This document shows, piece by piece, positions 2,405 through 44,152 of a stretch of DNA of 64,000 nucleotides. Below the pieces are notes generated by a model. The model made no database searches, was not told the DNA's origin, and worked only from the letters and a program-made list of their open reading frames with translations. The stretch lies in the NCBI GenBank assembly GCA_964400165.1, contig CAYNSX010000008.1, positions 91 to 64,090 of the forward strand, written 5' to 3'. The stretch comes from an uncultured bacterium (GTDB taxonomy: Bacteria > Armatimonadota > Hebobacteria > CAYNSX01). The position numbers were made by a program, and so were the translations under genes. Numbering within the stretch: position 1 is the first letter of the stretch; each line of letters begins with the position of its first letter.

Positions 2405-2610
2405 ATTGTGGATCACCACTTCGACTCCACTGAATTGACGGCGAATGACCGACCCCACCTGCCTGACCCGCTCCGTCGGAGCGGGCGGCACCCCGCCCTG
2501 GCTGTGCCAGGGACAGGGGCCTAACCCCTCCCCGTCTACGGGGAGGGGCAGAGACAACAGAGCAGGCGGGGAACCGCGGCTGGTAGAATACCGTCCTACG
2601 GAGGACGCGG

Positions 2611-3645
2611 ATGCGAGCGATGACCCTGGCGAGAGCGCTCCTGGTGGCCTTGGCGGGCCTGGCCCTGGCGGCTGAACCCGCCCCGGCGCCGCCACCGGCC
2701 CCGTCGCAGGCGGCGCCGGTCAGCACGGCGCCCATCTCAGCAGAGGCGGCCTGGCTGGAACTGGGCAGTCTGCGCGTCTATGAGGGCGACGCCCGGCGGG
2801 CGTGGCGGCCGATGGCCTTCGACTCGTGGGGCAGCGGCTTTGCCGGCGAGACATGGGGGCCGGACCTGTACTTTGTCGGGCCGCGGGTCATCCAGGTGGT
2901 CTCGCAGGGCTATCACAGCGGCGGCATCCTGAAGTTCGAGAGCCCGCTCGACCTGCGCCAGGCGTTCGCGGAGAAGGGCTGGATGCTGGAAATGCGCATC
3001 AACCTGGTGTCGCCCACTGGCTCGGCGCCGGCGCCGTTTCCGACGGCGGGCGGCGAAGCGCGCGCCGCGGCACGCGCGCCGGCGCGACCGGCCGCCGACC
3101 GCCCGGCCGTGGAGAATGTCTCCTTGCCCATCTTTCCGGCGATGCGCTTCCTGCGCCTGCAACTGCAAACACCGAGCGGCCCGATGCTGGCGCCGCGCGT
3201 GTCCATTGATGCGCCAGGGACCGTGACGGCGCGCGGCTGGGTGCATGTGGCGCTGCCGCTGGCCGACTTCAAGAGCATCGGGAACGCGGTGGACGGCCGC
3301 GTGTTCGCCATCGAGATTTCGTGCGACCGGCCGCAACTCTTCCACATCGGGCAAATCCGCGTGACGCGCGACCTGCAGCCGCTGACGGTGACGCTGGCAA
3401 GCGAGCCGTCGGTGGCGCGAGTGGGCGGACAAGTGCGTTTCCGCGCCACTGTGGACAAGGGGCTGTCGCGGGTGCGCGTGCGCTGGGATTTCGACAACCG
3501 CAACGGCGTCACCGCGCAGGCCGAGGGGACGAATGTCGGCAATGTCTTCACGCAGCCGGGCACTTACACGGTGACGGCGATTGTGGACGACTTCGTCGGC
3601 TTCAAACCGATGGTAACGCAGACCGTGACGGTGACCGTGCAATGA
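2611..3645 (+). CDS. Secreted hypothetical protein with a C-terminal PKD/Ig-like domain
   Basis: Signal peptide MRAMTLARALLVALAGLALA. C-terminus VRWDFDN..GTYTVTAIVDD is PKD-like. Confidence 0.55.
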   Translation: MRAMTLARALLVALAGLALAAEPAPAPPPAPSQAAPVSTAPISAEAAWLELGSLRVYEGDARRAWRPMAFDSWGSGFAGETWGPDLYFVGPRVIQVVSQGYHSGGILKFESPLDLRQAFAEKGWMLEMRINLVSPTGSAPAPFPTAGGEARAAARAPARPAADRPAVENVSLPIFPAMRFLRLQLQTPSGPMLAPRVSIDAPGTVTARGWVHVALPLADFKSIGNAVDGRVFAIEISCDRPQLFHIGQIRVTRDLQPLTVTLASEPSVARVGGQVRFRATVDKGLSRVRVRWDFDNRNGVTAQAEGTNVGNVFTQPGTYTVTAIVDDFVGFKPMVTQTVTVTVQ

Positions 3646-31186: not shown

Positions 31187-33961
31187 TCAGTCCGCGGCGA
31201 GTTCCTGGAGTCGGTGCTGCAACGCGGCGACGCGTTCCTCCGCTTCGACGCGCTGCGCTTCCGTCTTAGCGCGCACGGCCTCGGGCGCTCGCTCGCTGAA
31301 CTTCGGGTCGGCGAGGCGCGCCGTCAGTGAGTCCAGCCACGCCCGCCCGGTGGCCAAGTCCTTTTCAATCCGGGCGCGCTCGCCGGCGCGCTCTTCTGGT
31401 GACAGGCGCAAGTCAAGCGCGACGCGCACGACGCCGGTCGCGGTGGCCACTTCCTGCGCCGGCGCGTCGGCGGCGAGATCGCCGGCGGCCACGACGCGCA
31501 GGTCTTCGATCTGGGCAAGGCGGCGGAGCGGGGCGCGGTAGCGGGTGACGCTGTCGCCCAGCACGCTGTCGCCGCCCGCCAGCAGGGCCGACGGCTTGCC
31601 GGCGCCCGCGGCCTCGACGCGCAGCCGCCGAACGGCCTCGACGACGGCAATCAGATCACGCAGCGCCTGGTCGGCGGCGGGGTCGTGCCAGTCGGCGGGC
31701 GGCTGCGGCCAGGCGGCGAGCATCACGCTGGCCGGCGCGCCCGTTGCCCGCGGCAGGCGCTGCCACAGTTCCTCGGTGACAAAGGGCATCAGCGGGTGTA
31801 GCAACCGCAGGACCGTGTCGAGCGCGGTGTAGAGCGTCCAGCGGGTCGCGTCGGCGGTGGCGGGATCGCGCAGCGGCTCCTTGCTCAATTCGACATACCA
31901 GTCGCAGAACTCGCTCCACACAAACTGATAGAGCAGTTGCGCCACCGACGACAGCCGCGACTCGGCGAGCGCCGCGTCGACTTCCGCACACACCGCGTGC
32001 AAGCGGCTCAACATCCAGCGGTCGTGCAACGGCAGCGGACCGCTCGGGCGCGTCGGCGCGGCGTCACCGAGATGGGGCAGCGCGAAGCGCGTCGCGTTCC
32101 AGAGTTTGTTGGCGAAGTGCCTGCCCTCGGCGCACTTGTCTTCGTCGAAGCGGACATCCTGCGCCGGCCCGCTCTGCAGCGCGACGCCGAAGCGCAACCC
32201 GTCGGTGCCGTACTGCCCGGCGAGCGCGATCGGCTCGACGCCCGTGCCGAGCGACTTCGACATCCGCCGGCCTTCGATGGTCTGAATGGTCGGGTGCACG
32301 ATGACCTGCCAGAACGGCAGGCGGGCGTCCTCGGCGCGGTCGGTCAGCATGTGCAACCCCATCATCACCATCCGCACCACCCAAAGAAAGAGAATCTGCC
32401 GGTCGGTGATGAGCACATTCGTCGGATAGAAATAGGCGAGGTCGGGCGTGCGCTCCGGCCAGCCCAGCACCGCGAACGGCCACAGCGCCGACGAAAACCA
32501 GGTGTCGAGGACATCGGGGTCTTGCTCGATGTCGCCTTGCGCGGCGGCGTCGGCGCAAGTCGGGCAGCGGGGTTCGCCCTTAATCTGGCACCACTCGTGG
32601 CCTTGCGCGCAGTGATAGATGGGCAGGCGATAGCCCCACCACAGTTGCCGAGAAATCGGCCAATCGCGGATGCCGTCGAGCCAGTCGAGCGTCTGCGCAG
32701 CGTAGCGGTCGGGAATGTACTTGATGCGGCCATCGGCGATGGGCGCCCGCGCCGCGGCGGCCATCTCCTTCATTCGGCAGTACCACTGCGTGGTGAGAAG
32801 CGGCTCGATGACGGTGTCGCAGCGATCGCAATGGCCGAGACTGACGGGATACGGCTCCGTCTTCTCCAGCAAGCCCTGCGCCTCGAGGTCGGCGACGACG
32901 CGCTTGCGGGCATCGAAGCGGTCGATCCCCGCGTAGGGGCCGGCGTGTTCGGTCATGGCGCCGTCGCGCCCGATGACGCGCAGCACGGAGGGCGTGTCGC
33001 GCTCGCCGCCTTTCACCAGCGCGGCGTCACTCGGATACGGCCACAGACCGTGCCGCGACGCGATCTCGTAGTCGGTGGCGTCATGGACGGGCGTCACCTT
33101 CAGCGCGCCGGTGCCGAAAGCGGGATCCACATCGGCGTCGGCAATGATGGGCAGTTCGGCGTCGCGCCAGGTGACCAGCGGCAACCGCACGCGCCGCCCG
33201 ATCACCTGCGTGTAGCGTTCGTCCTTCGGGTTCACCGCCACGGCGATGTCGCCGAGCATCGTCTCCGGGCGGGTCGTCGCCACGATGACGGCGCCGTCGC
33301 CGTCCGCGAACGGGTAGCGGATGAAATACAGCCGCCCGTTCGGCTCGTCGCGGTGCCGCACTTCGAGGTCGGACAGAATGCTGCGGCAGCCCGGGCACCA
33401 ATTGCCGACGCGTTCGCCGCGATAGATGTAGCCGTCGTCATACAACCGCTTGAACGCGGTGTGGACCGCCGTCGCGTACCCCGAGTCCATCGTGAAACGG
33501 GTGCCCTTGATGGTGTTCTCGAAGGGCTGCGGGCGCCAGTCATACGAGCAGCCGAGCGCCCGCCATTGCCCGTGAATGGCGCCGCCGTACTTATGAGTCC
33601 ACTCCCAGCATTTGGCGATGAAGCCCGCGCGCCCGATGGCGTCTTTGGTGATGCCGTCCTGCGCCAGCCATTTCACCACCTGGCGTTCGGTGGCGATGCC
33701 GGCGTGGTCGCAGCCGGGGACGACGCGCACGACCGCGCCCTGCATCCGGCGCCAGCGGGCGAGGACATCGTGGACCAGGTGATTGACCGCGTGCCCCATG
33801 TGAAGCTCGGCGGTGACATTCGGGGGCGGCACGGTGATGCAGAAGCGCTTCGGATTCTTGGGGTCGGGGTCGCCCCAGAAGTAGCCGCGCGCCTCCCACT
33901 CGCCGTACCAGTGCTGTTCGACTGCCTGCGGGTCATACGCTTTCGGGAATTCGGCGGCCAT
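31187..33961 (-). CDS. valS: Valyl-tRNA synthetase
   Basis: Start MAAEFPKAYDPQAVEQHWY, HMGH and KMSKS motifs, C-terminal coiled coil. The upstream in-frame extension in the track is an artefact. Confidence 0.95.
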   Translation of the reverse strand: MAAEFPKAYDPQAVEQHWYGEWEARGYFWGDPDPKNPKRFCITVPPPNVTAELHMGHAVNHLVHDVLARWRRMQGAVVRVVPGCDHAGIATERQVVKWLAQDGITKDAIGRAGFIAKCWEWTHKYGGAIHGQWRALGCSYDWRPQPFENTIKGTRFTMDSGYATAVHTAFKRLYDDGYIYRGERVGNWCPGCRSILSDLEVRHRDEPNGRLYFIRYPFADGDGAVIVATTRPETMLGDIAVAVNPKDERYTQVIGRRVRLPLVTWRDAELPIIADADVDPAFGTGALKVTPVHDATDYEIASRHGLWPYPSDAALVKGGERDTPSVLRVIGRDGAMTEHAGPYAGIDRFDARKRVVADLEAQGLLEKTEPYPVSLGHCDRCDTVIEPLLTTQWYCRMKEMAAAARAPIADGRIKYIPDRYAAQTLDWLDGIRDWPISRQLWWGYRLPIYHCAQGHEWCQIKGEPRCPTCADAAAQGDIEQDPDVLDTWFSSALWPFAVLGWPERTPDLAYFYPTNVLITDRQILFLWVVRMVMMGLHMLTDRAEDARLPFWQVIVHPTIQTIEGRRMSKSLGTGVEPIALAGQYGTDGLRFGVALQSGPAQDVRFDEDKCAEGRHFANKLWNATRFALPHLGDAAPTRPSGPLPLHDRWMLSRLHAVCAEVDAALAESRLSSVAQLLYQFVWSEFCDWYVELSKEPLRDPATADATRWTLYTALDTVLRLLHPLMPFVTEELWQRLPRATGAPASVMLAAWPQPPADWHDPAADQALRDLIAVVEAVRRLRVEAAGAGKPSALLAGGDSVLGDSVTRYRAPLRRLAQIEDLRVVAAGDLAADAPAQEVATATGVVRVALDLRLSPEERAGERARIEKDLATGRAWLDSLTARLADPKFSERAPEAVRAKTEAQRVEAEERVAALQHRLQELAAD

Positions 33962-34152
33962 GGGAAAAGTGATTGTATCGGGATAGGTGTGAGGTGTCAC
34001 GGCAAACGGGAAGAGCACTGTGAAGTCGGCTCGTCGGTCGTGGGAAAGTCGGTGGTCGGGTCGTCGGACACCTCGGCCCCCATTTCCCAACGCTCCTACG
34101 ACCCCACGACCCCACGACCGCTTGTTCCCGCCTCCCTGCCTCCCCGGTCTCT

Positions 34153-35403
34153 CTATCCAGCGAACAACGGATAAGTGCTGCACAATTCGCGCACTTCGGC
34201 GGCGGTGTGCGTGATCAGCGTCGCATCCTGCGGGGCGCGACAGATGGCGGCGATACGCTCGGCGGCCCACTGCATTTCGGCGACTCCCATCCCGCGCGTG
34301 GTGACGGCGGCGGGTCCGAGGCGCAGCGCGTGCATGGGAATGTCCCACGATTCGTTCGGCAGCGGCAGGCCGTTCGACAGGATGCCGGCGCGGGCGAGCG
34401 CCCGCTCGACCGTCATCGCATCGACTCGCAGCGGGCGCAGGTCGCCCATCAGCAGGTGCGTCTCGGTGCCGCCCCAGGCGAGCGGGATGCCGTTCGCTTG
34501 CAGCGCCTCGCCCAGGGCGCGGCAGTTGGCCAGGACACGCTCCATATAGGAGCGGAAGTCGATCGTCATTGCCTCGCCGAAGCAGGCGGCCTTGGCGGCG
34601 ATGACATGCATCGGCGGGCCGCCCTGGATGCCGGGCGCCATCGCGGCGTCAATGCGCTCGGCGAACTGGCCCCGGCAGAGAATGAGGCCGCCGCGCGGGC
34701 CGCGGAGGGTCTTGTGGGTGGTGAAGGTGAGGACATCGCAATATGGCACCGGGTCGGGATGCAGGCCGGTGCAGATGAGGCCGCCGAGGTGCGCGACATC
34801 GCCGAGGAGCAGCGCGCCGACCTCGTCGGCGAGCACGCGCCAGGGCGCCGGGTCGTACTTTGGCGGATACCACGAGTAACCGATGCAAATGATCTTCGGC
34901 TTGTGCTGCAGCGCGGCGGCGCGGGCGGCGCCGAGGTCGAGCAGCCAGGTCTCCGGATGCAGTTCGTATTCAGCACGGCGGTAGAGTTGCGCGGTCAGGT
35001 TGCCTTCGAGCGCGTGCGAGTAGTGCCCGCCCTGAAAGCGCTGCAGTGTCAGGATAGTGTCGCCCGGCTTGAGCAGGGCCGAAAAGCAGACGAGGTTGGC
35101 GACGGCGCCGGTAGCGGGCTGGACATTAGCGTGTTCGGCCCCGAAGAGGCGGCAAGCGCGGGCGACGGCGAGGCGCTCGATGTCGTCCACGATTTCGCAA
35201 CCGGGATAGTGGCGGTGGCCGGGATAGCCCTCGGCGTATTTGTTGGTGAGGACCGACCCCTGCGCCGCCAGCACCGCCGGGCTGACATAGTTCTCGGAGG
35301 CGATCAAGTTGAAGCAGAGGCGCTGCCGCTCGGCTTCCCGCGCGAGCAGATCGGCGAGTTCCGTGTCGGCGGCGGGCGCGGCGGTGGCGGACTGGGCGTC
35401 CAT
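34153..35403 (-). CDS. glyA: Serine hydroxymethyltransferase (copy 1)
   Basis: LIASENY and TTHKTLRGPRGG PLP-Lys motifs. Start MDAQSATAAP. Confidence 0.95.
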   Translation of the reverse strand: MDAQSATAAPAADTELADLLAREAERQRLCFNLIASENYVSPAVLAAQGSVLTNKYAEGYPGHRHYPGCEIVDDIERLAVARACRLFGAEHANVQPATGAVANLVCFSALLKPGDTILTLQRFQGGHYSHALEGNLTAQLYRRAEYELHPETWLLDLGAARAAALQHKPKIICIGYSWYPPKYDPAPWRVLADEVGALLLGDVAHLGGLICTGLHPDPVPYCDVLTFTTHKTLRGPRGGLILCRGQFAERIDAAMAPGIQGGPPMHVIAAKAACFGEAMTIDFRSYMERVLANCRALGEALQANGIPLAWGGTETHLLMGDLRPLRVDAMTVERALARAGILSNGLPLPNESWDIPMHALRLGPAAVTTRGMGVAEMQWAAERIAAICRAPQDATLITHTAAEVRELCSTYPLFAG

Positions 35404-35432
35404 GGGTACTACTGGTTTCGCTGCGAGGGACG

Positions 35433-35993
35433 CTACTCCTGCGCGGTGGCGAGGAGTCGTTCGAGCAGGGTGGTCAGTCCCAATTCGTTTGACCATTTTT
35501 GGAGATATGCGAGATCGAGCATGCCGGCCTGCACGCGCGCAACCGAGAGCGCATCTGTCCACTGCCGCTCCGATTGCGACTCCGCGTGCCAGCGCAACTT
35601 GGAGAGGATAAGATCTTCGGGCGTGCAGACAAAGGCCTGCGTGTCGAGGAACTCTCGGCGACTTCGCCGAGCAAAGGCTTCTCGATCGTACGCCGTGTCC
35701 GCCACTGGCCAATAGTCCACTTTCAATCCGGTCGGTTGATGGATGGCGTTGAAGAGGTCGCGCTCGCTCACCGCTCGTGCGGCCTCGTTCGAATCGAAAT
35801 AGAAGTCCGAACCAAGCGCCCGGCGTAGCGGTTCGATGGCAGCCGCTTCGAGCGCCACCACAATGTCAAAATCGTGCGTGGCGCGGGAGAGGGACCACGA
35901 ACCGAGCGCGACCCCACCAGTCACCATGTATGGAATGCGACACTCCTCCAGCGCGCGCACCACTACGGCCAGGACTGCGCGCAAATCGTTCAT
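35433..35993 (-). CDS. Nucleotidyltransferase-fold protein (MNT-like GG..A...S..R.T.D.D motif), candidate toxin/antitoxin component
   Basis: TGGVALGSWSLSRATHDFDIVV. 186 aa. ATGA-coupled to the small upstream ORF. Confidence 0.65.
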   Translation of the reverse strand: MNDLRAVLAVVVRALEECRIPYMVTGGVALGSWSLSRATHDFDIVVALEAAAIEPLRRALGSDFYFDSNEAARAVSERDLFNAIHQPTGLKVDYWPVADTAYDREAFARRSRREFLDTQAFVCTPEDLILSKLRWHAESQSERQWTDALSVARVQAGMLDLAYLQKWSNELGLTTLLERLLATAQE

Positions 35994-36220
35994 TTGGACA
36001 GTGAATTCAGCACCTTGGCAGCCATCGGCGCGCCCAGCACTCGCCGCAGGAACTCCGCATGAAACTCTGTTTCAGTGAATTCAGGGTGCTGCTGACGAAT
36101 GCCCTGCATCAGCAATTCCCGGGAAATATCCGACAACTGTGCTGCAAGATCTGCGCGCCGTTCCGGCGTCATCGCGCGGAAGATTTCAATTTGCATCCGT
36201 TCGGCATCGCGGGGGCGCAT
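35990..36220 (-). CDS. Small helical protein (~77-88 aa) translationally coupled to the nucleotidyltransferase. Start uncertain (36220 or 36256)
   Basis: ORF whose stop overlaps the NTase start (ATGA). No recognised motif. Confidence 0.45.
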   Translation of the reverse strand: MRPRDAERMQIEIFRAMTPERRADLAAQLSDISRELLMQGIRQQHPEFTETEFHAEFLRRVLGAPMAAKVLNSLSK

Positions 36221-36260
36221 CGCAATCAGTGTAGGCCGCGCCCGGCGGCGCGGCAATGCG

Positions 36261-37571
36261 CTACGGCGTCACCCACCCGTAGACGGGATGCTGGTCGCAC
36301 AGGGCGCGGGCCTCTTCGCGCACTTCGACGCGGAACTCGGGCCGCTCCGGGTGCTGCAAGACGCGCAGCAGCAGGTCGCCGACCTTGTCCATCTCCGCCT
36401 CGCCGAAGCCGCGCGAGGTGACCGCGGGCGTGCCCGGGCGCAGGCCCATCGGGCGATAGGGCGGGCTGTGGTCGAAGGGCACCGTGTTCTTGTTGACGAA
36501 GATGCCGGCCTCTTCGAGCGCCGCCTGCGCGTCGGCGCCGTTCCAGGGCGTTCCGCACAGGTCCACCAGCATCAAGTGCGTCTCGGTGCCGCCGGTGACG
36601 AGGCGGAAGCCGGCGTCCAGCAGCCGCTGCGCCAGAATTTGGGCGTTGACCAGCACCTGTTCCTGATAGGCGCGGAACTCGGGCATCGCTGCCTCGGCGA
36701 AGCAGACGGCCTTGGCCGCCACCTGGTGCATAAACGGCCCCGCTTGCACGCCCGGGAAGACGGCCCGGTCGATGGCCTCGGCCAGTTCCGGGCGGCAAAG
36801 AATGAAGGCGCCGCGTGGGCCGCGCAGCGTCTTGTGCGTGGTGGCAGTGACGACATCGGCGTAAGGCACCGGGTTCGGGTGCAAGCCAGCGGCGATCAGG
36901 CCGGCGGTGTGCGCAACATCGGCGACCAGGTAGGCGCCGATTTCGTCCGCGAGGTCGCGCCACTCCGCCCAGTCGATCTGCCGCGGATAGGCGCTGTAGC
37001 CGACGACGATCAGCCGCGGCTGCCAGGCATGCGTCAGCGGGCGCACGCTCGCCGCGGTGAAGCGTTCGGCTTCCGGGTCGAGTTGATAGGAGACGACGCC
37101 GTAATAGCGCGACGAGAAGTTCACCCGCGCGCCGTGCGTCAGGTGGCCGCCGTGATTGAGCGCCGGCGCCAGGATGGTGTCGCCGGGCTTGAGCAGCGCG
37201 TAATAGGCAGCCATGTTGGCGAGCGCGCCGGAGAGCGGCTGCACATTGGCGTGCGCAGCGCCGAACAGCGCCCGGCAGCGCTCGACGGCGAGGCGTTCGA
37301 CTTCGTCCACCCAGGTGCAGCCGGGGTAATAGCGATGGCCGGGATAGCCCTCGGCGTATTTGTTGCTCATCACCGAGCCGCTCGCCTCGAGGACAGCGCG
37401 GCTGGCGTAGTTTTCGCTCGGGATCAGGTTGATGCAGTGCTGCTGCCGCTCGCGCTCGCGGCGCAGAGCGGTCGCGAGTTCGTCATCGACTTCAGCCAGC
37501 GGGCGCGCCAGCAGATCCGAGAGGGAAGAGAGCAATGAGTCCACTGCGCAAAGTGTAGCGCCAGCGCGCAC
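36261..37571 (-). CDS. glyA: Serine hydroxymethyltransferase (copy 2, paralog). Exact start uncertain (GTG at 37571 or 37545)
   Basis: LIPSENY and TTHKTLRGPRGA motifs. About two-thirds identical to copy 1 by eye. Confidence 0.9.
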   Translation of the reverse strand: MRAGATLCAVDSLLSSLSDLLARPLAEVDDELATALRRERERQQHCINLIPSENYASRAVLEASGSVMSNKYAEGYPGHRYYPGCTWVDEVERLAVERCRALFGAAHANVQPLSGALANMAAYYALLKPGDTILAPALNHGGHLTHGARVNFSSRYYGVVSYQLDPEAERFTAASVRPLTHAWQPRLIVVGYSAYPRQIDWAEWRDLADEIGAYLVADVAHTAGLIAAGLHPNPVPYADVVTATTHKTLRGPRGAFILCRPELAEAIDRAVFPGVQAGPFMHQVAAKAVCFAEAAMPEFRAYQEQVLVNAQILAQRLLDAGFRLVTGGTETHLMLVDLCGTPWNGADAQAALEEAGIFVNKNTVPFDHSPPYRPMGLRPGTPAVTSRGFGEAEMDKVGDLLLRVLQHPERPEFRVEVREEARALCDQHPVYGWVTP

Positions 37572-37589
37572 GCGCGTTGTGCGCAGGGT

Positions 37590-37960
37590 GTGGAAGAGGG
37601 GCGGTGCGGCGAATCAGTGCTTGAAGTGCCAAACGCCCTTCAGCGCCCTCACCCGCCCGTCGCTGCGCTCCGTGCGCCCTCTCCCTGAAGTGGAGAGGGA
37701 CTACGCATCACCCCTCGGTGCAATCCGACCCTTGTTTCCTCGTTTCCTCGTCTTTGGTCTCTCAATGCTTGAAATGCCTTATGCCCGTCATCACCCTCAC
37801 CCGCCCGTTGCTGCGCGCCGGGCACCCTGCTTCGCCAACGCTTCGCAGGGCAAGCCCTCTCCCTGAAGCGGAGAGGGACAACGCATCATCCCTCGGTACA
37901 ATCTGAACCTTGTTTCCTCGCTTCCTTGTTTCCTCGTCTTTGGTCTTTCAATGTTTGAAG
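37590..37960. repeat. Tandem array (2 full plus 1 partial copy, ~180-bp unit) of the dispersed repeat element. Each unit carries a copy of the purH 3' end (ttgaagtgccttatgcccgtcatcacc) and an inner hairpin ccctctccctgaag(c/t)ggagaggg
   Basis: Direct comparison of 37600-37775 with 37776-37955. The last copy overlaps the purH stop codon. Confidence 0.65.
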
Positions 37961-39492
37961 TGCCTTATGCCCGTCATCACCATCGCCAGGCCGCGCTCAT
38001 CGGCGGCGGCGACGATGTCGTCGTCCGACTTCGAGCCGCCCGGCTGCAGGATGGCTGTCACGCCCGCGTCCGCCGCGGCATCAATCGCGTCGCGCTTCGG
38101 GAAGAACCCGTCGGAAGCGAGCGCGGCGCCGCGGGCGCGGGCGCCCGCCTTGGCGACCGCCTGCTTCACTGAATCGACACGGCTGGTCTGCCCGCCGCCG
38201 ATGCCGACCGCGTGCGTGCCCTGCGCCAGCACGATGGCGTTCGAGCGCGTGTGCTTGGCGACGCGCTCGGCGAATCGCAGGCCTTCCCCCTCGGCGGCGG
38301 TGGGCTGCTTCTTCGTCACCACCCGCGGCTCGTCGGCGACCGCAGTATCCATCTCCTGCATCAGCATCCCGCCCGCGATGCGCCGCCAGTCGTAGGTGCC
38401 CTCGGGCGGCGCTTCCAGGGAAACCGTGAGCAAGCGCAGGTTGGCGGACTGCTTCAGAGTCGCCAGCGCGCCGTCCGAAAATCCCGGCGCGGCAATGACT
38501 TCGAGAAACCCCGCGTTCGCAATCGCTGTGGCAGTGTCGTCATCCACCGGCGCATTGCAGGCCACTACGCCGCCGTAGGCCGACAGCGGGTCGCCGGCGT
38601 GCGCGGCACGGAAGGCGGCGGCGAGCGTCGCGTCGCTCGCCGCACCGCAGGGCGTGTTGTGTTTGATGATGCACGCGCCCGGCGGCGGCAGGTCGAGGAC
38701 GAGCGACAGCGCCGCGTCCAGATCGAGGTAGTTGTTGTACGACGGCGCCTTGCCGTGCAGCAGGTGTCCGTGGGCGGCGCCGCTCACCGGGCCGAGCGTG
38801 TCGAGATAGAGCGCCGCGGCCTGGTGCGGGTTTTCGCCGTAGCGCAGCGTGAACGCCAGGTCCCAGCCGCGGGTGATGCTGGGCGGGAACTTGCGCCGGT
38901 CGCCGCCGAGCATGCCGGACAGGTAGTGGGCGATGCTGGTGTCGTAGCGCGCCGTGTGCGAGAACGCGCGCAACGCCAGCCGCTCGCGCCCGGTGAGCGA
39001 GATGTCGCCGCGCTCCTGCAGTTCGGCGAGGACGCGCGGATATTCGTCCGGGTCGGTGATGACGATGACGCCGAGGAAGTTCTTCGCCGCGGCGCGAATG
39101 AGCGCCGGCCCGCCGATATCGATGAATTCGAGACACTCTTCGAGCGTGACACCGGGCCGGCGCGCCGTGTCGGCGAAGGGATACAGGTTCACCGCCACCA
39201 GGTCGATCGGCGCGATGTCGTGCTCCTGCAGCGAGGCCATGTCGTCTTGCCGGTCGCGGCGGGCGAGCAGGCCGCCGTGGATTTTCGGGTGCAGCGACTT
39301 TACCCGCCCATCGAGCAACTCCGGAAAGCCGGTGTAATCGGAGACCTCGTTGACAGGGACGCCCTCGCTCTTGATAAGCGCCGCGGTACCGCCGGTGCTC
39401 ATGAGCGTGACGCCCAGTTCGTGCAGGCCGCGGGCGAAGTCGGCGATGCCGCGCTTATCGGAGACGCTCAACAGCGCGCGGCGGACAATCAT
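37948..39492 (-). CDS. purH: Bifunctional AICAR transformylase / IMP cyclohydrolase
   Basis: MIVRRALLSVSDKRGIADFARGL N-terminus (MGS-like) and AICARFT domain. Confidence 0.95.
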   Translation of the reverse strand: MIVRRALLSVSDKRGIADFARGLHELGVTLMSTGGTAALIKSEGVPVNEVSDYTGFPELLDGRVKSLHPKIHGGLLARRDRQDDMASLQEHDIAPIDLVAVNLYPFADTARRPGVTLEECLEFIDIGGPALIRAAAKNFLGVIVITDPDEYPRVLAELQERGDISLTGRERLALRAFSHTARYDTSIAHYLSGMLGGDRRKFPPSITRGWDLAFTLRYGENPHQAAALYLDTLGPVSGAAHGHLLHGKAPSYNNYLDLDAALSLVLDLPPPGACIIKHNTPCGAASDATLAAAFRAAHAGDPLSAYGGVVACNAPVDDDTATAIANAGFLEVIAAPGFSDGALATLKQSANLRLLTVSLEAPPEGTYDWRRIAGGMLMQEMDTAVADEPRVVTKKQPTAAEGEGLRFAERVAKHTRSNAIVLAQGTHAVGIGGGQTSRVDSVKQAVAKAGARARGAALASDGFFPKRDAIDAAADAGVTAILQPGGSKSDDDIVAAADERGLAMVMTGIRHFKH

Positions 39493-43104: not shown

Positions 43105-43135
43105 GAATAATGAATGATGAATAATGAATGGACTA
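43104..43135. repeat. AT-rich TGAATGA-type repeat (catgaataatgaatgatgaataatgaatgg), inverted partner of 43529-43560
   Basis: Reverse complement matches the ATTCATCATTCA tandem motif at 43529-43560. Confidence 0.55.
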
Positions 43136-43528
43136 CGCCCCACTCCCGCCGCCTTTCGCGAGTCGGCGGAGGGAGGCAATGTAGCCATTCAGTTGCCGAA
43201 TAACCGATCGCGTGCCCTCGGTCAAGCGCTCCAATTGTGCAGCCTTCTCGGGTTCGACAAGTGACATCGTGTGCAGATGATCGATGAGTTCCCACGCGGA
43301 GCCACGAGCGATGTACAAGAACTGAATCCGGTCACGATACCCAAACCGACCGAAGGCCTCCGCGATGTTGGCGGATATCGAGAATGCGGCGGAGAAAGTT
43401 TGCTCCTCGATACGACTCTTCCGCAGCCGGTTAGTCCCAAGTAATGCAACGACCTCCGACTTCAGCGTGCGCGCTTCCTTGTAGAGTGCCATGTCCAAGA
43501 GGTCGCGTGACCCTGGAGTGTCAGTCAT
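43133..43528 (-). CDS. Four-helix-bundle protein (23S rRNA intervening-sequence protein family, TIGR02436-like)
   Basis: 131 aa. The family is well known. The gene is bounded by AT-rich inverted repeats and interrupts the ubiD-ubiX-ubiA array. Confidence 0.7.
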   Translation of the reverse strand: MTDTPGSRDLLDMALYKEARTLKSEVVALLGTNRLRKSRIEEQTFSAAFSISANIAEAFGRFGYRDRIQFLYIARGSAWELIDHLHTMSLVEPEKAAQLERLTEGTRSVIRQLNGYIASLRRLAKGGGSGA

Positions 43529-44107: not shown

Positions 44108-44152
44108 ACGAATGGGATTCGGCGGCGACGCTGGTACCGCCTTTGGCTGCGG

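Follow-up and report, generated by a model that had tools for sequence, protein, structure and literature searches.

Organization of the locus

The genes described here lie on the minus strand of a 64,000-nucleotide stretch of an Armatimonadota metagenome contig (CAYNSX010000008.1), referred to below as the window. A small gene and a gene for a nucleotidyltransferase (NTase) are located there between two genes encoding serine hydroxymethyltransferase (SHMT), designated glyA1 and glyA2. Our analysis indicates that the small gene and the NTase gene quite probably constitute a bicistronic, translationally coupled, and horizontally acquired toxin-antitoxin (TA) cassette of the MenAT1 type, which would be a selfish or defence-type passenger without a specific tie to one-carbon metabolism. 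The initial annotation had placed a small gene and an NTase gene between two SHMT genes on this strand; all four genes are present, and their coordinates were corrected as follows.

36261..37544, minus strand: glyA2, the canonical, ancestral SHMT copy, 427 aa (PF00464 and NF000586)
35990..36220, minus strand: candidate MenA1-like (Rv0078B-family) antitoxin gene, 76 aa, product all-helical (PF18993 matches at family level, pairing)
35433..35993, minus strand: candidate MenT1-like NTase toxin gene, 186 aa (profile, fold, and conserved residues)
35471..36190, minus strand: core of the cassette, hyperdivergent relative to the related contig L085 (blastn gap, synonymous divergence, composition at third codon positions)
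34153..35403, minus strand: glyA1, a divergent, fast-evolving SHMT paralog, 416 aa (PF00464)

The order on the minus strand is purH, glyA2, the 76-aa gene, the NTase gene, glyA1, and valS, all co-oriented and tightly packed. According to the gene call and the N-termini of homologs, the small gene most likely starts at the ATG at 36220 and not at the TTG at 36256, and its TGA overlaps the ATG of the NTase gene (ATGA). The ATG of glyA1 lies 30 nt past the NTase stop codon. For glyA2, the most likely start is the GTG at 37544, as in its orthologs, the mechanically delimited open reading frame (ORF) reaching 37571. A mechanical glyA1 ORF extending to 35712 was rejected, as it overlaps the NTase gene and is unsupported by the gene calls in L001 and L085. 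No intergenic terminator-like site was found on the minus strand between purH and valS, and the terminator-like matches located inside coding regions (4 found, 2.7 expected) are at chance level.

The nucleotidyltransferase resembles the toxin MenT1

When the 186-aa protein itself was used as query, no match was obtained in Pfam (even at E ≤ 1), NCBIfam, PADLOC, or PHROG, and a phmmer search against PDB sequences yielded nothing significant for either small protein. A word-indexed search identified 286 NTase homologs; hundreds with 35-48% identity are encoded in metagenomes, all of them unnamed. An exhaustive profile search of the NTase family collected 2,027 clusters (at 50% identity) with E ≤ 1e-30 and 9,208 with E ≤ 1e-10. 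Because homologs are so numerous, the NTase and its partner are regarded as real genes and not as chance ORFs of a genome with 67% GC. The subfamily is environmental, its members originating from sediment and soil metagenomes and from cyanobacterial plasmids. Plasmid-borne homologs (H1-H6, 29-34% identity) were found in Nostoc, Planktothrix, Calothrix, Pseudanabaena, and Herpetosiphon, all annotated as hypothetical protein, and there was none among 50,697 phage records.

The NTase motif read initially (GG..A...S..R.T.D.D) proved to be real and conserved across 46 homologs. In the window protein it takes the form G26-G27...R37-A-T39-H-D41-F-D43. Invariant in the alignment of the 46 homologs are G26, R37, D41, D43, F81, N82, K91, D93, D127, L130, K132, W135, S141, and D147, and every family-invariant residue is present in the window NTase; T39 is found in at least 90% of the aligned family sequences.

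A profile made from these 46 homologs matched MenT1 (Rv0078A; 8an4, 8an5, and 8rr5) of Mycobacterium tuberculosis in the PDB with an E-value of 2.4e-8, through the segment GG...PRFTRDVDIVV; the same profile also matched a fungal 'nucleotidyltransferase-like protein' (5uvd) with an E-value of about 1e-8. An AlphaFold2 (AF2) model of the window NTase, with a mean predicted local distance difference test score (pLDDT) of 96 and a predicted template modelling score (pTM) of 0.91, was compared with the PDB using Foldseek. Ranks 1-5 were all occupied by MenT1 chains, aligned over the full length with E-values from 3e-8 to 4e-6, the best being 8an5_A (E 3.1e-8, template modelling (TM) scores 0.73/0.70), and the next match was the aminoglycoside-modifying enzyme ANT(2'')-Ia, with an E-value of 8e-5.

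The catalytic centre of MenT1 comprises T39, D41, D43, K137, and D152, and R37 has also been implicated; toxicity is lost in the variants D41A, K137A, and D152A, and T39 is the site of an auto-phosphorylation induced by the antitoxin (PMC10435456, PMC11375011). R37, T39, D41, and D43 occupy identical positions in the window NTase, in which RATHDFD aligns to PRFTRDVD of MenT1. In the C-terminal half, the invariant residues K132 and D147 are 15 residues apart, the spacing of K137 and D152 in MenT1. Overall identity between the two proteins in the structural alignment is low (21-25%). The NTase groups with MenT1 and not with a housekeeping NTase family lacking a TA association.

The match to ANT(2'')-Ia nevertheless raises the alternative of a non-toxic two-component NTase, in which the small protein would be a regulatory or adaptor subunit of an enzyme modifying antibiotics or other small molecules, such as ANT(2'')-Ia or LnuA, or of a repair or modification enzyme. 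After MenT1, the NTase comes closest in structure or profile to ANT(2'')-Ia, LnuA, and TM1012; the Pfam family Aminoglyc_resit gave weak matches in 18 of the 46 homologs, and PADLOC, as stated, did not recognize the protein. The MenT1 matches, however, surpass that to ANT(2'') by three to four orders of magnitude and span the entire protein. Other weak Pfam matches among the 46 homologs were to the AbiEii/DUF1814 family PF08843 (in 22 of them), DUF6036, DUF2204, and NTP_transf_5.

The small gene encodes a putative antitoxin of the Rv0078B family

In M. tuberculosis, rv0078A is preceded by a 68-aa ORF encoding the antitoxin (PMC7450476). In the window, the 76-aa product was examined together with its homologs. 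The Pfam family PF18993, which comprises antitoxins related to Rv0078B, was matched by 22 of 31 partners, always in one register and with a best E-value of 2.4e-12, and some homologs exceed its gathering score, for example with 32.7 bits. A single-sequence AF2 model of the 76-aa protein consists of four helices (pLDDT 93). No HEPN domain was detected by Pfam or PADLOC in either the partner or the NTase, nor did the partner match AbiEi in either resource. The initial annotation was therefore right to see neither HEPN nor AbiEi in the partner, which is instead a probable member of the Rv0078B (MenA1) family. A profile of the partner matched solely designed repeats resembling tetratricopeptide repeats (TPR) in the PDB; these were regarded as spurious helical matches and were discarded.

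Pairing and gene fusions across the family

Upstream regions were compared at 83 NTase loci, consisting of 80 metagenome loci and the loci L002, L003, and L085. In 78 of them, the gene directly upstream of the NTase gene encodes a homolog of the partner and ends at the NTase start codon or overlaps it; at L003 this homolog was identified where no gene had been called. The genes neighbouring the NTase differ among L002, L003, and L169.

The lengths of the family members revealed a further connection. Among the 149 best representatives of the NTase family at 50% identity (P0363-P0511), 43 (about 29%) are 240-299 aa long, and 42 of these 43 carry the partner domain as an in-frame N-terminal extension of the NTase. 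One fusion, P0363, recurs with unchanged sequence on six contigs derived from separate samples (e.g., L169, positions 2501-3373, and L170, positions 1833-2705) and is therefore not a sequencing artefact. The fusions provide Rosetta-stone evidence, drawn from sequence, that partner and NTase work together. To our knowledge, single-chain fusions of partner and NTase have not been described for MenAT1.

The fusions can be read in two ways. A fused state in about 29% of the top representatives is what would be expected for the subunits of one enzyme and so agrees with the non-toxic two-component NTase introduced above. On the other hand, fused TA proteins such as CapRel-SJ46 and EzeT are known. 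The partner family, moreover, matches an experimentally validated antitoxin family, and the overlapping bicistron, the variable neighbourhoods, and the foreign composition and allele turnover described below are typical of TA cassettes. Because MenT1 is the better match, the partner family is a validated antitoxin family, and the cassette behaves as a mobile one, a TA function is preferred and a non-toxic enzyme with an adaptor subunit appears unlikely.

Comparison with known TA systems

In MenAT1 (Rv0078B/Rv0078A; 8AN4, 8AN5, 8RR5), as in the window, a short upstream gene for a helical antitoxin overlaps the gene for an NTase of roughly 190 aa. The toxin fold is the best PDB match of the window NTase, and the partner family matches the MenAT1 antitoxin family PF18993. 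The window pair differs from MenAT1 in lying below the Pfam thresholds for AbiEii/DUF1814 and for Rv0078B.

The initial annotation had compared the pair with MNT/HEPN-like or AbiE-like systems; the TA-like character stood, and membership in AbiE or MNT-HEPN gave way to a MenAT1-type assignment. AbiE and the DUF1814 toxins of MenAT3 and MenAT4 belong to the same NTase superfamily and have DxD and C-terminal Lys/Asp motifs. The pair is not AbiE, since an AbiEi partner is missing: the 76-aa protein is neither AbiEi/COG5340, which is a winged-helix protein, nor COG4861; the toxin candidate is also about 100 residues shorter, and PADLOC reported no AbiE match. MNT-HEPN systems likewise combine a minimal NTase fold with a small neighbouring gene, but there the NTase is the antitoxin and the HEPN RNase the toxin, whereas the window pair has another gene order and other sizes; lacking a HEPN domain, it is not MNT-HEPN.

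Several observations weigh against a MenAT1-type assignment. The window NTase is in no curated family of Pfam, NCBIfam, or PADLOC, and the 76-aa partner itself matched PF18993 with an E-value of only 0.018 and 15.5 bits, the Pfam cut-off being 27.1, so that profile searches of the two individual proteins remained below threshold and the family-level matches carry the assignment. A fold search with the partner model against the PDB gave nothing significant, with MenA1 (8an5_C) at rank 14 and an E-value of 6.2. A C-terminal profile of the NTase does not reach MenT1 by sequence; since the sequence link is confined to the N-terminal 72 residues, it is the fold match and the spacing that suggest the equivalence of K132/D147 with K137/D152. 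Given how often partner and NTase are covalently fused, the partner could also serve as the regulatory domain of an enzyme without toxicity and not as a labile antitoxin. Finally, MenT2, one of four MenT paralogs, is not toxic (PMC7450476), so membership in the family is no guarantee of toxicity.

Setting these points against the fold match, the PF18993 matches, and the conserved pairing, we maintain that a MenAT1-type cassette is the probable identity of the pair, in agreement with the TA-like character proposed initially. By analogy with MenT1, the NTase would have a DxD metal site formed by D41 and D43, with D93 as the third acid, complemented by K132 and D147 in the C-terminal half. It would add nucleotides to the 3' CCA ends of tRNA, and this addition would block aminoacylation and hence translation. 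The small helical partner is predicted to bind the toxin and to cover its active site, possibly also inducing auto-phosphorylation of the NTase at T39. Transcription of the cassette probably occurs by read-through from purH/glyA2.

The cassette is compositionally foreign and occupies a hypervariable slot

The only close relative of the window is L085, a contig of 203 kb that was assembled from a different metagenome. The two sequences are colinear, with a nucleotide identity of 84-93%, and purH, glyA2, the small gene, the NTase gene, glyA1, and valS follow one another in L085 as they do in the window. Between 36191 and about 35470 of the window, blastn gave no alignment of the two contigs at all, and the flanks are 89-92% identical. 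The amino acid identity between the two cassettes is 43% for the NTases and 45% for the partners. Synonymous divergence (substitutions per synonymous site, dS) is 2.6-2.9 in the cassette versus 0.27-0.37 in purH, glyA2, and glyA1, and the ratio of non-synonymous to synonymous divergence (dN/dS) of the cassette genes, 0.18-0.21, indicates purifying selection. In the pairwise alignments the breakpoints are sharp, one lying about 10 codons past the antitoxin start codon and the other 12 codons short of the end of the NTase gene. In a neighbor-joining (NJ) tree of 202 sequences, the syntenic NTases of the window and L085 are not sisters.

The GC content at third codon positions (GC3) of the two TA genes is 0.62-0.71 in both genomes, versus 0.86-0.89 in neighbouring genes and 0.86-0.88 in glyA1. 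As judged from these values, the cassette is compositionally foreign, in line with horizontal acquisition, and glyA1 is host-like.

An alternative is that the difference between the two alleles arose in place, through rapid diversifying evolution of a vertically inherited cassette. Both contigs indeed have the cassette in the same slot and share both gene ends, and the two NTases are mutual best BLAST matches, albeit by a small margin (166 versus 147-151 bits), part of which is due to the shared C-terminal 12-16 residues. Positive selection on a protein, however, does not produce saturation at synonymous sites, and the dS of the cassette is 7-10 times that of the flanks; its dN/dS speaks for purifying selection, the edges are sharp and not graded, and the NTases are not sisters in the family tree. 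Since synonymous divergence is saturated, the edges are sharp, and the composition is foreign, fast evolution in place is disfavoured and is considered highly improbable.

The slot behaves as a hypervariable TA locus: either the core of the cassette was replaced, or the allelic polymorphism is old and recombination has homogenized its flanks. The core may have been spared recombination since toxin and antitoxin must stay matched. At position 38, MenT1 has a Phe that contacts MenA1; the L085 allele has Phe and the window allele Ala, which would fit differing allele specificities. A more far-reaching reading, to which we assign a rather low probability, is that the slot harbours an old balanced polymorphism of incompatible MenAT1-like alleles, with recombination suppressed in the core and unimpeded within 10 codons of the start and 12 codons of the end, that would act as strain-incompatibility or phage-defence determinants; the fusions would then represent a sensor-type, CapRel-like branch of MenT proteins, and glyA1, discussed below, would perhaps be neofunctionalized and folate-independent.

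In hotspots flanked by core genes, a fixed chromosomal slot between housekeeping genes carries differing defence or TA cassettes in related genomes. The present slot differs from these in that both alleles belong to one TA family and the breakpoints fall inside the module itself, in its 10 opening and 12 closing codons, not in the flanking genes.

Two further differences between the contigs were noted within operons, one of them a second case in this lineage of a TA polymorphism, here of presence versus absence. L085 carries, at 1287-1972 between ubiD and ubiX, a VapBC-type pair consisting of a FitA-like ribbon-helix-helix (RHH) protein and a PIN protein, and the window counterpart (44127-44150) is a spacer of about 23 nt. 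The window has, at 43133-43528 on the minus strand between ubiX and ubiA, a gene for a 131-aa four-helix-bundle protein of the 23S_rRNA_IVP family (PF05635, E 5e-17) that is absent from L085. Since the contigs differ by these genes as well, opportunistic insertion of small genes between housekeeping genes seems to be common in this lineage.

The two glyA genes are old paralogs

Both glyA products are recognizable SHMTs. All matches are above cut-off, with an E-value of 7e-144 for PF00464 and 551 bits for NF000586 in the case of glyA2, and 3e-112 and 441 bits, respectively, in the case of glyA1, and the motif with the lysine that binds pyridoxal phosphate (TTHKTLRGPRG) is visible in both. The two products share 50% amino acid identity. 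Identical residues are encoded by identical codons in 63% of cases, versus 56% expected from codon usage alone; because this fraction is near the expectation, synonymous sites of the paralogs are considered saturated. The two copies are old paralogs and not the outcome of a recent duplication.

glyA2 is 99% identical to its L085 ortholog, 85% to the protein P0244, and at most 62% to all others, the best named matches belonging to Armatimonadota metagenome-assembled genomes. A relative with 62% identity (L167) has kept the purH-glyA adjacency with a single glyA, followed by an unrelated BON-domain gene, and in the relative with 85% identity glyA is followed after 30 nt by a convergent gene, neither a cassette nor another glyA being present at that site. 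The close relative L085 has both paralogs and an occupied slot, and the more distant ones have a single glyA and no cassette at this place. glyA2 is the ancestral copy. For glyA1, a search of 5.8 billion proteins gave no homolog with more than 53% identity except the L085 ortholog, and a scan of genome contigs returned solely generic SHMTs with 43-50% identity and no relatives.

The two copies evolve at different rates. In the comparison with L085, glyA1 has a non-synonymous divergence (dN) of 0.043 and a dN/dS of 0.12, and glyA2 a dN of 0.008 and a dN/dS of 0.03, so glyA1 is about five times faster at non-synonymous sites, yet under purifying selection. Near-invariant SHMT columns were defined as those at least 95% conserved in 118 SHMTs (119 columns); glyA1 departs from 14 of the 119 and glyA2 from 3. 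Among the changes in glyA1, which are fixed in both genomes, Leu replaces the Asn of the NKN motif, Tyr the Leu of GGHLTHG, and Ala the Phe of VFPG. We take these three residues to be folate-contacting, although a literature search on the Asn returned nothing. glyA1 may encode a neofunctionalized, possibly folate-independent enzyme with the SHMT fold and not a spare SHMT.

Regarding the origin of glyA1, both copies contain the motif RxYPGC, other SHMTs having YGGC, YNGC, or YHGC; of 241 sequences compared, the 4 with RxYPGC all belong to this lineage. In an NJ tree, glyA1 joins the glyA2 lineage with a bootstrap value of only 37%. The initial annotation had left recent duplication and lateral gain as the two possibilities. 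The former is contradicted by the identity of 50% and the saturated synonymous sites; because the rare motif is shared, an old duplication within the lineage followed by functional divergence is favoured on sequence grounds, and lateral gain is a less favoured origin that could also account for glyA1.

An identical run of 30 nt is shared by the two paralogs, at 35218-35247 and 37338-37367, where the peptide NKYAEGYPGH is encoded. Coincidence, the peptide being conserved, or a very short tract of gene conversion may account for it. As evidence for gene conversion between the copies, one 30-nt run at a strongly conserved peptide was deemed unconvincing.

The cassette and its neighbours

It had been proposed initially that the pair might mediate or stabilize the glyA duplication. 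A tie of this kind would have the cassette maintain glyA1, or the duplication, by post-segregational killing, or would involve cross-talk with valS and the charging of tRNA. In its favour, both genomes known to carry glyA1 have a cassette in the slot, the junctions are tight without a terminator between the genes, and aminoacylation links valS with the acceptor ends of tRNA, the presumed target of the toxin. Against this, a survey of 82 other NTase loci (314 kb) found no SHMT gene near the NTase gene, the paralogs greatly predate the cassette, and glyA1, being under purifying selection and of host composition, needs no addiction module to persist. The VapBC pair of L085 and the 23S_rRNA_IVP gene of the window, likewise situated between operon genes, argue for opportunistic insertion. 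With old paralogs, a host-like glyA1, and a foreign cassette, the proposal was not borne out; nothing in the data requires addiction-based stabilization of the locus, and any functional tie to the neighbours is very unlikely. The cassette would instead be a later passenger in a fixed, old intergenic slot between long-resident, functionally diverged glyA paralogs.

MenT toxins have so far been studied almost solely in M. tuberculosis. The locus described here forms part of a large, uncurated environmental branch of probable MenAT1-type systems, with about 2,000 clusters at 50% identity (E ≤ 1e-30), mostly below curated thresholds. This branch offers natural fusions of partner and toxin and would allow testing how general the antitoxin-induced auto-phosphorylation of T39 is, and the two deeply diverged alleles in one slot could be used for mapping antitoxin specificity. 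For annotation, our findings suggest that the pair can be named, and they advise against describing the glyA genes as recent duplicates and against presuming that glyA1 is redundant as an SHMT.

Flanking genes, spacers, and regulatory signals

The remaining features of the locus are the following.

37948..39492, minus strand: purH (AICAR transformylase/IMP cyclohydrolase), ORF of 514 aa, first gene of the co-oriented run
37572..37947, no strand: purH-glyA2 spacer, 376 nt, with tandem repeats, outside the TA module
36215..36261, minus strand: GC-rich hairpin from the glyA2 stop codon to the antitoxin ATG (RNA folding)
31187..33961, minus strand: valS (valyl-tRNA synthetase); the L085 ortholog has 924 aa and tRNA-synt_1 domains

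The start of valS was set from the gene length in L085. The purH product is 95% identical to its L085 ortholog, which has the domains PF02142 and PF01808, with a dS of 0.34. An Rfam scan of the whole window gave no riboswitch or other RNA family, including no ZTP or glycine riboswitch near purH or glyA.

The hairpin at 36215-36261 (minus strand) has a folding energy of -31.8 kcal/mol, with a z-score of only -2.06, and L085 shows the same sequence conserved. In the outer stem, GCGCAU is paired with AUGCGC of the antitoxin gene, which includes the start codon.

Tandem repeats (families D1-D3) with a period of 148-186 nt extend over 37572-37993, in the purH-glyA2 spacer, which is about 70 nt long in L085. 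They include a duplicated 3' end of purH and the hairpin core GCCCTCTCCCTGAAGYGGAGAGGGAC. A third copy of this core, with one mismatch, is located at 415-440 of the window, far from the glyA locus, which suggests a dispersed element similar to repetitive extragenic palindromic (REP) sequences or miniature inverted-repeat transposable elements (MITE).

The glyA1-valS spacer (33962-34152, about 190 nt) is about 150 nt longer than in L085 and contains short GTCGTGGG repeats. A sigma-70-like site, GTGACA-17-TACAAT, is located at 34000..33972, just upstream of the valS ATG.

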